This document shows, piece by piece, positions 56,131 through 60,265 of a stretch of 64,000 nt of DNA. Where the stretch lies: IMG/VR virus record IMGVR_UViG_3300025889_000073, positions 96,001 to 160,000 of that record. One strand, written 5' to 3'. Under the pieces are notes generated by a model that saw only the letters and a list, made by a program, of their open reading frames with translations, had not been told where the DNA came from and searched no databases. How positions within the stretch are numbered: position 1 is the stretch's first letter; each line of letters opens with the position of its first letter. The stretch comes from a virus. A program made the position numbers and the translations under genes.

Positions 56131-56159
56131 TTGACACCTCACTCAAAATGGATTATAAT
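56131..56159 (+). promoter_or_regulatory. Consensus sigma70 (early) promoter
   Basis: TTGACA-17 nt-TATAAT, followed by an AAGGA Shine-Dalgarno. Confidence 0.9.
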
Positions 56160-58563: not shown

Positions 58564-58592
58564 TTGCCAAACCTATCCGGTTGTGTTATAAT
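58564..58592 (+). promoter_or_regulatory. Sigma70-type promoter before the AAA ATPase
   Basis: TTGCCA-17 nt-TATAAT with an extended -10 (TGT). Confidence 0.75.
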
Positions 58593-59801: not shown

Positions 59802-59819
59802 TCTCTGCCTGTATAAGTA

Positions 59820-59848
59820 TTGACATTCCATACTTAATACAATATAAT
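59820..59848 (+). promoter_or_regulatory. Consensus sigma70 promoter
   Basis: TTGACA-17 nt-TATAAT. Confidence 0.9.
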
Positions 59849-59854
59849 CAACGA

Positions 59855-59900
59855 ATTGCAGGGACGGGCCGCCTCTGTAATATTTTCCCAAGTGCGGCCC
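59855..59900 (+). promoter_or_regulatory. Predicted H-type RNA pseudoknot in the 5' leader
   Basis: Stem 1 ATTGCAGGG (59855-63) / CTCTGTAAT (59873-81); stem 2 GGGCCGC (59866-72) / GCGGCCC (59894-900). Confidence 0.7.
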
Positions 59901-59922
59901 ATTTTCTATAAGGAAATTTGTA

Positions 59923-60195
59923 ATGTCTGTTAAAGCTAAAGTTCTAGCGTATCTTTCGAAAGATTCGGAGTATAATACTCTAACCGCAAATAAAATGCGT
60001 TCCGTTTTCGGCGCAAAAAACCCCTCGGCCGTCATTGACGAGCTGCGTAAAGAGGGTCATGCTATTTACTTGAATAGCCGTACCAATGCAAGTGGCGAGA
60101 AAGTTTCTTTCTACCGTCTTGGTACTCCAACCAAGCGTATGATTGCTGCTGGTATCGCAGCCCTGCGTAATTCAGGTGTTCGTGCTTTTGCCTAA
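59923..60195 (+). CDS. Small winged-HTH-like protein
   Basis: K.KVL.YL.....LT...+...FG..NPSA.I.ELRK.G..I...YRLG.P pattern; basic; own promoter and terminator. Confidence 0.7.
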   Translation: MSVKAKVLAYLSKDSEYNTLTANKMRSVFGAKNPSAVIDELRKEGHAIYLNSRTNASGEKVSFYRLGTPTKRMIAAGIAALRNSGVRAFA

Positions 60196-60213
60196 ATAAT
60201 CTAAAAGCCGTTT

Positions 60214-60251
60214 AAGAGAGAGGATATATAATTATGTCCTCTCTCTTTTTT
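60214..60251 (+). terminator. Intrinsic terminator
   Basis: AGAGAGAGGATATA-TAAT-TATGTCCTCTCTCT followed by a T run. Confidence 0.85.
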
Positions 60252-60265
60252 ACTATGGATTAATT

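Follow-up and report, generated by a model that had tools for sequence, protein, structure and literature searches.

The leader of gene 32 in bacteriophage T4 contains a 5' pseudoknot located 67 nucleotides (nt) upstream of the AUG, to which gp32 binds and from which it spreads across an unstructured A+U-rich tract over the ribosome-binding site, and the gene 32 mRNA is the most stable mRNA of T4 (PMC3014915). Phages of the T4 type also autoregulate gp43 and RegA at the level of translation (PMC3014915). A leader of comparable layout is present in a 64,000-nt stretch of viral DNA (hereafter the window), which comprises bases 96001–160000 of the 171.7-kb IMG/VR virus record IMGVR_UViG_3300025889_000073, the genome of a T4-like water phage with 35% G+C. 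There, a 46-nt H-type pseudoknot starts 68 nt 5' of the AUG of a gene for a 90-amino-acid protein (open reading frame at positions 59923–60195 of the window, on the plus strand like the other elements of the unit), which is predicted to be a winged helix of the HTH_39 kind. Comparison with the leaders of related genes shows that the fold is real and is held by selection on the sense-strand RNA. It represents an RNA family that is new and absent from Rfam 15, although its kind, the phage mRNA leader pseudoknot, is known.

The likeness to the gene 32 leaders of T4, T2 and RB69 includes the T4-type phage, the 5' H-type pseudoknot with two coaxially stackable stems, the distance of the knot from the AUG, an unstructured A+U-rich stretch that reaches the ribosome-binding site, and a downstream product of the nucleic-acid-binding type. 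In contrast to gene 32, whose product is an SSB (single-stranded DNA-binding protein) with an oligonucleotide/oligosaccharide-binding fold (gp32, PF08804), the gene described here encodes a 90-amino-acid winged helix, and the gp32 of this phage is encoded elsewhere, behind a different leader. The linker between the knot and the ribosome-binding site is likewise unpaired and 94% A+U, but it is only 6–20 nt long, U-rich and without UUAAA repeats. With differences in gene, linker and sequence alike, the gene 32 leader counts as an analogue in function, and the knot is not a member of it. Rfam holds no gene 32 model (PMC10690425). The gene 32 of this phage lies at positions 67183–67785 of the genome, and inspection of its leader by eye, without folding, revealed no knot-like structure. 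This leader (L089:1290–1365, genome ~66970–67050) holds a tandem direct repeat, ATACTCCGTTTATACTCCGTTTATAC.

The pseudoknot in the leader of the alpha operon (S4) serves autogenous translational control. The leader pseudoknot of E. coli rpsO (S15) acts in the same manner (PMC3014915). The rpsO and S4 knots include the Shine-Dalgarno sequence (SD) and the AUG and trap the ribosome, whereas here both the SD and the AUG are outside the knot and unpaired. A catalogue of structured-RNA candidates from IMG/VR, published in 2023 and put at about 10,000 candidates or at about 8,500 (8,495 csRNA models), lists covarying structures just upstream of phage genes, 12 of them before gp32 genes (PMC10690425); its text makes no mention of helix-turn-helix (HTH) genes or of this motif.

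Stem 1 of the window copy consists of nine base pairs (bp), two of them G-U, between its 5' arm (ATTGCAGGG, 59855–59863) and its 3' arm (CTCTGTAAT, 59873–59881). The loop of stem 1 contains loop 1 (L1), the dinucleotide AC at 59864–59865, and the 5' arm of stem 2, GGGCCGC, at 59866–59872. The latter pairs with GCGGCCC at 59894–59900 through seven G-C/C-G pairs, and the two arms are the sole two copies of the stem 2 heptamer in the window. The 3' arm of stem 1 directly abuts stem 2, and since no nucleotides separate the two helices (L2 = 0), they can stack coaxially. Loop 3 (L3) consists of 12 nt (59882–59893). About 23 nt lie between the end of the knot and the AUG, and a U-rich single-stranded linker of 9 nt (59901–59909) separates the knot from the SD, AAGGA, at 59910–59914, with the ATG at 59923. 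The preliminary description of this DNA had reported the promoter, both stems with L1, L2 and L3 of 2, 0 and 12 nt, an SD 9 nt farther on, a small HTH-like gene and a terminator, and each of these was recovered where it had placed them. It had also called the element strikingly GC-rich, which is correct for the window copy (56% G+C versus 35% for the genome) and does not extend to the family, as the elements of the relatives contain 29–45% G+C.

The pattern of the pseudoknot alone is not beyond chance, because a loose scan for H-type pseudoknots finds about 20 distinct sites per strand of the 171.7-kb genome and the z-score for the best nested folding of the leader does not go beyond -1.7. It is the covariation seen among the sequences of relatives that settles the matter and raises the pseudoknot above chance.

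The 90-amino-acid protein has 562 close homologues in metagenomes and at least 80 viral loci at 73–91% identity, and the 125 nt upstream of the homologue loci display, by eye, the same layout of promoter, knot, linker and SD with altered stem sequences. Of the leaders examined from relatives, only a few lack the motif. Across about 60 distinct leaders, with protein identity down to 49%, both stems are kept through compensatory changes, and 93–96% of the alignment cells are paired compared to 34–48% in slid controls. In a MAFFT alignment of 39 distinct leaders the paired cells amount to 94.7%, as opposed to 34–45% when the partners are slid by 1–3 columns, compensatory (both-side) changes occur in 14 of the 16 pairs, and, on all five measures, 0 of 500 shuffles reached the observed value. 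As a guard against circularity, two covariance models were built, one with stem 1 only and the other with stem 2 only. When the fit was made to stem 1, 93.6% of the stem 2 cells were paired and five of the seven pairs of that stem were compensatory; when it was made to stem 2, the paired share of stem 1 was 94.1%, with compensatory changes in nine of nine pairs. Between 94 and 96% of stem 1 cells are paired across the alignments, and the stem 1 helix is predicted unaided by RNAalifold. The P0128 group (L091–L124), with proteins just 49–56% identical, keeps the knot with yet other sequences. Distinct haplotypes number 28 for stem 1 and 26 for stem 2, and a tree of the coding region only requires at least 28 and at least 32 Watson-Crick pair-type switches in stems 1 and 2, respectively, counts that lean high since a gene tree from ~270 nt is weakly resolved. 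The core of the preliminary description is supported as regards a cis-regulatory RNA outside Rfam, located 5' on the mRNA of a small protein of the nucleic-acid-binding type: both stems covary, no family of Rfam 15 matches the typical members at E ≤ 10, the protein is predicted to be a winged helix of the HTH_39 kind, and promoter and terminator are conserved around it.

Among the inner pairs there are 37 G-U and 4 A-C combinations, and because of this excess the folded molecule is taken to be the sense-strand RNA and not a DNA palindrome, in which the G-T and A-C numbers would be equal. The same counts bear on a proposal that the inverted repeats work at the DNA level, as operators 3' of the promoter where a dimeric repressor would bind the duplex. 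Stem 1 does span +1 to +27 of the promoter as an inverted repeat of 9 bp, and the product of the gene is a winged helix of the DNA-binding type. However, besides the strand asymmetry, there are two interleaved palindromes that both covary, the spacing between the arms varies by at least 4 nt, which would rotate the half-sites on B-DNA, and no related sites are present elsewhere in the genome. Operators of this sort are hardly credible.

The anatomy of the family was surveyed in 62 distinct leaders. Stem 1 contains 6–10 bp (mode 9) and stem 2 contains 6–8 bp, L1 is 1–5 nt (mode 2), L2 is 0–1 nt, and L3 is 10–14 nt in most leaders (mode 12), with a full range of 10–19 nt. Both L1 and L3 vary in sequence among the relatives. 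The part conserved in sequence is the helical junction, where GAGAG/CUCUC at the top of stem 1 is stacked on YCGC/GCGR of stem 2. L3 tolerates insertions, as one subgroup (L019, L024, L032 and L037, ~1427–1482) holds an extra small hairpin, CCCTGTTAGGG, inserted there. The linker to the SD is 6–20 nt long (median 10) and consists of 66% U, 28% A and 1% G, while 77 other genes of the genome have 35% T in the 12 nt that precede their SD; given this difference, the U-richness of the linker is not the background composition. No conserved pairing was predicted by RNAalifold in the linker and SD region. Sequestration of the SD and alternative folds were considered as well. The window sequence would allow UUGUAAU, located before the AUG, to pair with the 5' arm of stem 1, and the SD to pair with the linker, and neither pairing is conserved according to RNAalifold.

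A search of Rfam 15 over the window gave a single match at the gathering threshold, a tRNA elsewhere, and no family at threshold for the leader. The sole Rfam model touching the leader is RF03084 (DUF2815 RNA), which aligns with the window copy from stem 2 through the linker and the SD to the AUG at 25.4 bits (E = 0.012 in a 461-nt search at E ≤ 10), compared to a gathering threshold of 41.2. The DUF2815 proteins are phage SSBs (PMC5686142). RF03084 thus resembles the present leader in being a phage leader in front of a gene for a DNA-binding protein, but the downstream gene family is different. Searches of Rfam at E ≤ 10 in 20 relatives, together with focused searches of the typical members L035 and L109, returned no match to RF03084, and as the window copy scores below the threshold and the relatives have no match, the leader is not a member of this family.

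Small-molecule riboswitches of the H-type pseudoknot kind (SAM-II/V, preQ1, fluoride, guanidine-III) are comparable to the knot in size and topology. The preliminary description had recognised no match to the riboswitch consensus sequences of SAM-II, preQ1, ZTP and fluoride, and indeed no Rfam riboswitch model matches at E ≤ 10; specifically, the models for SAM-II/V, preQ1-I/II/III, fluoride and guanidine-III have no match at this level to the window copy or to typical relatives. L1 (1–5 nt) and L3 (10–19 nt) are variable, which leaves no conserved pocket, and the gene encodes a winged helix and is not a metabolic or transport gene. The knot is therefore most improbable as a riboswitch, and the option of a ligand sensor that had been offered earlier is unlikely, given loops that differ in both sequence and length and a gene outside any metabolic context.

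Judged from the sequence scans, the complete knot is found solely with this winged-helix gene family, and it is widespread among uncultured T4-like phages of the viral metagenome records. The 171.7-kb genome contains one copy under both covariance models. A pattern describing the commonest subtype was scanned across the viral collection and gave 80 loci, of which 59 have the full knot, always immediately before the winged-helix gene (two are cut by contig ends), while the remaining 21 lack stem 2 and belong to coding sequence or to unrelated terminators. A scan with P0136 returned no loci. The other consensus-promoter leaders of the genome are short and barely structured. The possibility of a regulon was rejected: neither covariance model detects a second copy in the genome, leader k-mers are not enriched and the gene 32 leader, inspected by eye, is unrelated.

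Related clades have other structures in place of the knot. In the sister group L125–130 and in the P0130 group L131–139, the knot is replaced by a plain 5' hairpin, in some cases with a GNRA loop, and a U-run. In L125–L130 (~320–400) this is a hairpin of 4–5 bp with a GNRA tetraloop (GCAA, GAAA or GTAA), followed by 5–9 T. A more distant group, L142–210, has a different covarying hairpin, and some members present the SD in a loop. There (e.g. L148:300–400), the hairpin has 7–8 bp and is placed ~10 nt before ATTTGTCATGATAAGGAG, and the SD of some members is inside an AATGTT...AACATT loop. None of the cultured phages with distant homologues (Stenotrophomonas phage DLP_6, Pelagibacter phages HTVC008M and Mosig, and Methylophilales phage Melnitz) has the knot. 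Since related clades carry other leader structures, a structured leader is a lasting trait of the gene family, of which the knot is the version of one clade.

The unit begins with a sigma-70-type early promoter, TTGACA-17-TATAAT, at 59820–59848 (-35 at 59820–59825, a 17-nt spacer and -10 at 59843–59848). It matches the consensus in 12 of 12 positions and is one of two such promoters in the 64-kb window, where 0.13 are expected by chance. The transcript is predicted to start at ~59855. A promoter of the form TTGAC(A/T)-17-TATAAT/TATACT is located at the equivalent place in nearly all relatives, and the gap between the -10 and stem 1 is 5–10 nt (mode 7–8) in the 62 leaders, from which the RNA is predicted to begin 0–3 nt before the knot. 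About 10 nt 5' of the -35, most relatives keep a GCC-containing motif (TTGCCT, TTACCG or CTGCCT, followed by an A-rich segment; window 59805–59819), a candidate UP-like element or regulator site for early promoters of this type.

The reading that is tentatively preferred is that the knot could be a gene-specific, protein-read translational operator, most simply one read by the product of the gene itself, and that it would double as a shield of the 5' end. The transcript of the one-gene early unit would begin at, or within ~3 nt of, the first base of the knot. The knot abuts the site where the ribosome lands, on its 5' side, and is joined to the strong SD by the short unpaired, U-rich and G-poor linker. 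Such an operator would act in cis and post-transcriptionally. A protein would recognise the conserved helical junction (GAGAG/CUCUC stacked on CGC/GCG), and the bound protein would occlude or cover the adjacent U-rich ribosome-loading tract, so that translation would be repressed at protein excess. The most economical candidate for the reader would be the winged-helix product of the gene, and the logic would be that of the T4 gene 32 leader, in which an A+U tract free of structure comes after a 5' pseudoknot and covers the ribosome-binding site. As almost no single-stranded 5' tail would be left, the knot would also protect the mRNA against 5'-end-dependent decay.

The operator is ranked first because protection of the 5' end does not call for the degree of conservation seen in stem 2 and in the junction sequence, because the element is unique to one gene, and because T4-type phages habitually autoregulate their nucleic-acid-binding proteins translationally. 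The structured leaders of other shapes in the more distant clades of the protein family also speak for it. Several points weigh on the other side. Winged helices usually bind duplex DNA. The related clades L125–139 encode homologous proteins behind a plain 5' hairpin and U-run, and these hairpin-only clades agree at least as well, or better, with a general requirement for some stable 5' structure as with a specific operator. The linker, with a median of 10 nt, is far shorter than the gene 32 tract and lacks its UUAAA repeats, the transcript start is a predicted one, and the counts of independent events derived from the ~270-nt gene tree are upper-leaning estimates. The fullest form of the proposal, in which the 90-amino-acid winged helix would bind the pseudoknot of its own mRNA and repress its own translation, as a second and independently evolved case of pseudoknot-nucleated translational autoregulation among T4-type phages, with a winged helix in the place of an SSB of the oligonucleotide/oligosaccharide-binding fold and with the knot serving also as a decay-resistant 5' cap, is considered possible but rather doubtful.

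In E. coli, mRNAs such as that of ompA are stabilised by 5'-terminal stem-loops with few unpaired 5' nucleotides, and ribosomal protein S1 prefers U-rich tracts upstream of the SD. The knot resembles the ompA-type stabilisers as a stable structure with almost no unpaired 5' nucleotides, which is deduced here from the -10 spacing. The unit may thus be a constitutive high-expression module without a dedicated regulator, in which the knot would be a cap-like block to 5'-end-dependent decay (by RppH/RNase E, or by RNase J in hosts that have it) and the linker would be a loading site for S1, both of which, along with the perfect promoter, the strong SD and the long terminator, would maximise the yield of an abundant small protein. 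Stem 1 begins 0–3 nt from the predicted start, and the placing of a simple hairpin, some with GNRA loops, and a U-run at this position in related clades suggests that any stable 5' structure suffices. The 12/12 promoter, the conserved 12–14-bp terminator hairpin and the U-rich, G-poor linker are in line with a design in which every part is strong. However, the ompA-type stabilisers are hairpins, like those used at this place by the sister clades, whereas the present structure is a two-stem knot with selection on both stems: a 9-bp hairpin would suffice for protection of the 5' end, yet stem 2 is equally strongly selected. Moreover, the junction sequence is conserved beyond the needs of pairing, and the other consensus-promoter transcripts of the phage are without such a structure, indicating that this is not a general solution of the phage. 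A module free of any regulator is on the unlikely side and comes close behind the operator.

An operator could alternatively be read by another factor, either gp32 or RegA of the phage, or the host proteins S1 or Hfq acting on the U-rich tract. The phage encodes both gp32 and RegA, the linker is single-stranded and U-rich, and the initiation region of the window gene, GGAAAUUUGUAAUGU (59912–59928), resembles the SELEX consensus aaAAUUGUUAUGUAA of T4 RegA (PMC3014915). In view of this resemblance and of the presence of RegA in the phage, the early mRNA may also be a RegA target. On the other hand, there is one knot in the genome, whereas control of the RegA type affects many mRNAs without structure, and the gene 32 leader of this phage shows no similar knot by eye, so that a reader other than the gene product is improbable.

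The hairpin-only clades look like mini-terminators, and in 46 of the 62 leaders at least five U are found in the 8 nt after stem 2. It was therefore considered that the leader might be a transcription attenuator, in which stem 2 and the U-run would form a leaky terminator, with its efficiency set by whether stem 1 forms first, a design of interleaved helices and a U-tract. Structures located upstream of terminators and adjoining them do suppress termination, and a related steric 'tug-of-war' mechanism of antitermination has been described (bioRxiv 10.64898/2026.06.17.733018). As a hairpin, however, stem 2 would have 6–8 bp and a loop of 19–25 nt, compared to 12–14 bp and loops of 4–6 nt in the real terminators. 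The divergent members L063, L065, L073, L076, L081 and L097–103 keep both stems without a U-run directly behind stem 2, where the sequence opens with AAAT, AACT or AATTTA, and RNAalifold finds no conserved alternative antiterminator pairing. An attenuator is as improbable here as an operator read by another factor.

The 90-amino-acid protein matches phrog_4973, a family of unknown function, with E = 2.8e-12, and has no Pfam match at threshold. The Pfam model PF14090 (HTH_39) scores 16 bits (E = 0.011), under its gathering threshold of 21.3 bits. Of 54 relatives in the alignment, 52 match this model at E ≤ 1, with 1.5e-10 as the best value. The AlphaFold model, with a predicted local distance difference test (pLDDT) score of 86, has the order helix-helix-helix-strand-strand-helix, which corresponds to a winged helix of three helices and two strands with an additional C-terminal helix. 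Its structural neighbours are only generic winged helices of the PadR, MarR and TFE types and uncharacterised phage 'HTH' proteins. Searches for function by fold or profile likewise gave only generic winged-helix matches or uncharacterised 'HTH domain' phage proteins, and nothing functional was found in the literature naming HTH_39. The model and the profile together predict a winged helix of the HTH_39 kind, which agrees with the small product of nucleic-acid-binding type postulated in the preliminary description. The high abundance proposed there for the protein is an inference.

With 46 nt, unusually clean covariation in two stems and a tie to one gene family, the knot is a compact second leader pseudoknot from phages. 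Its small size makes it a tractable system for three questions: can an RNA knot be read by a winged-helix protein, does a pseudoknot placed at the very 5' end give bacterial or phage mRNA better protection than a hairpin does, and how are early phage genes tuned one by one? The collected leaders can serve directly as the seed alignment of the new RNA family, which is defined well enough for an Rfam entry.

The record contains several T4-type genes. CobS- and CobT-like genes are located directly 5' of the unit, and RegA is encoded at genome position 160924–161286, in addition to the gp32 gene mentioned above. The nearest cultured relatives by DNA are cyanomyoviruses and one pelagimyovirus, with the similarity limited to cobS. 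Near-consensus early promoters are also found at window positions 56131–56159 and 58564–58592, before the CobT-like and CobS-like genes, and the leaders that follow them are short and weakly structured.

The one-gene unit is closed by an intrinsic terminator at 60214–60253, made of a hairpin of 14–15 bp (60214–60247) and a T-run. Among 52 distinct relatives, 41 have a hairpin of 12–14 bp with a T-run 17–22 nt past the stop codon (e.g. L022:1790–1825). This terminator is also conserved in sequence, with a purine/pyrimidine stem (GGAGAGA...TCTCTCC-like) and an AT-rich apex, GATATATATTAGTATC, and its stem echoes the GAGAG/CUCUC of stem 1.

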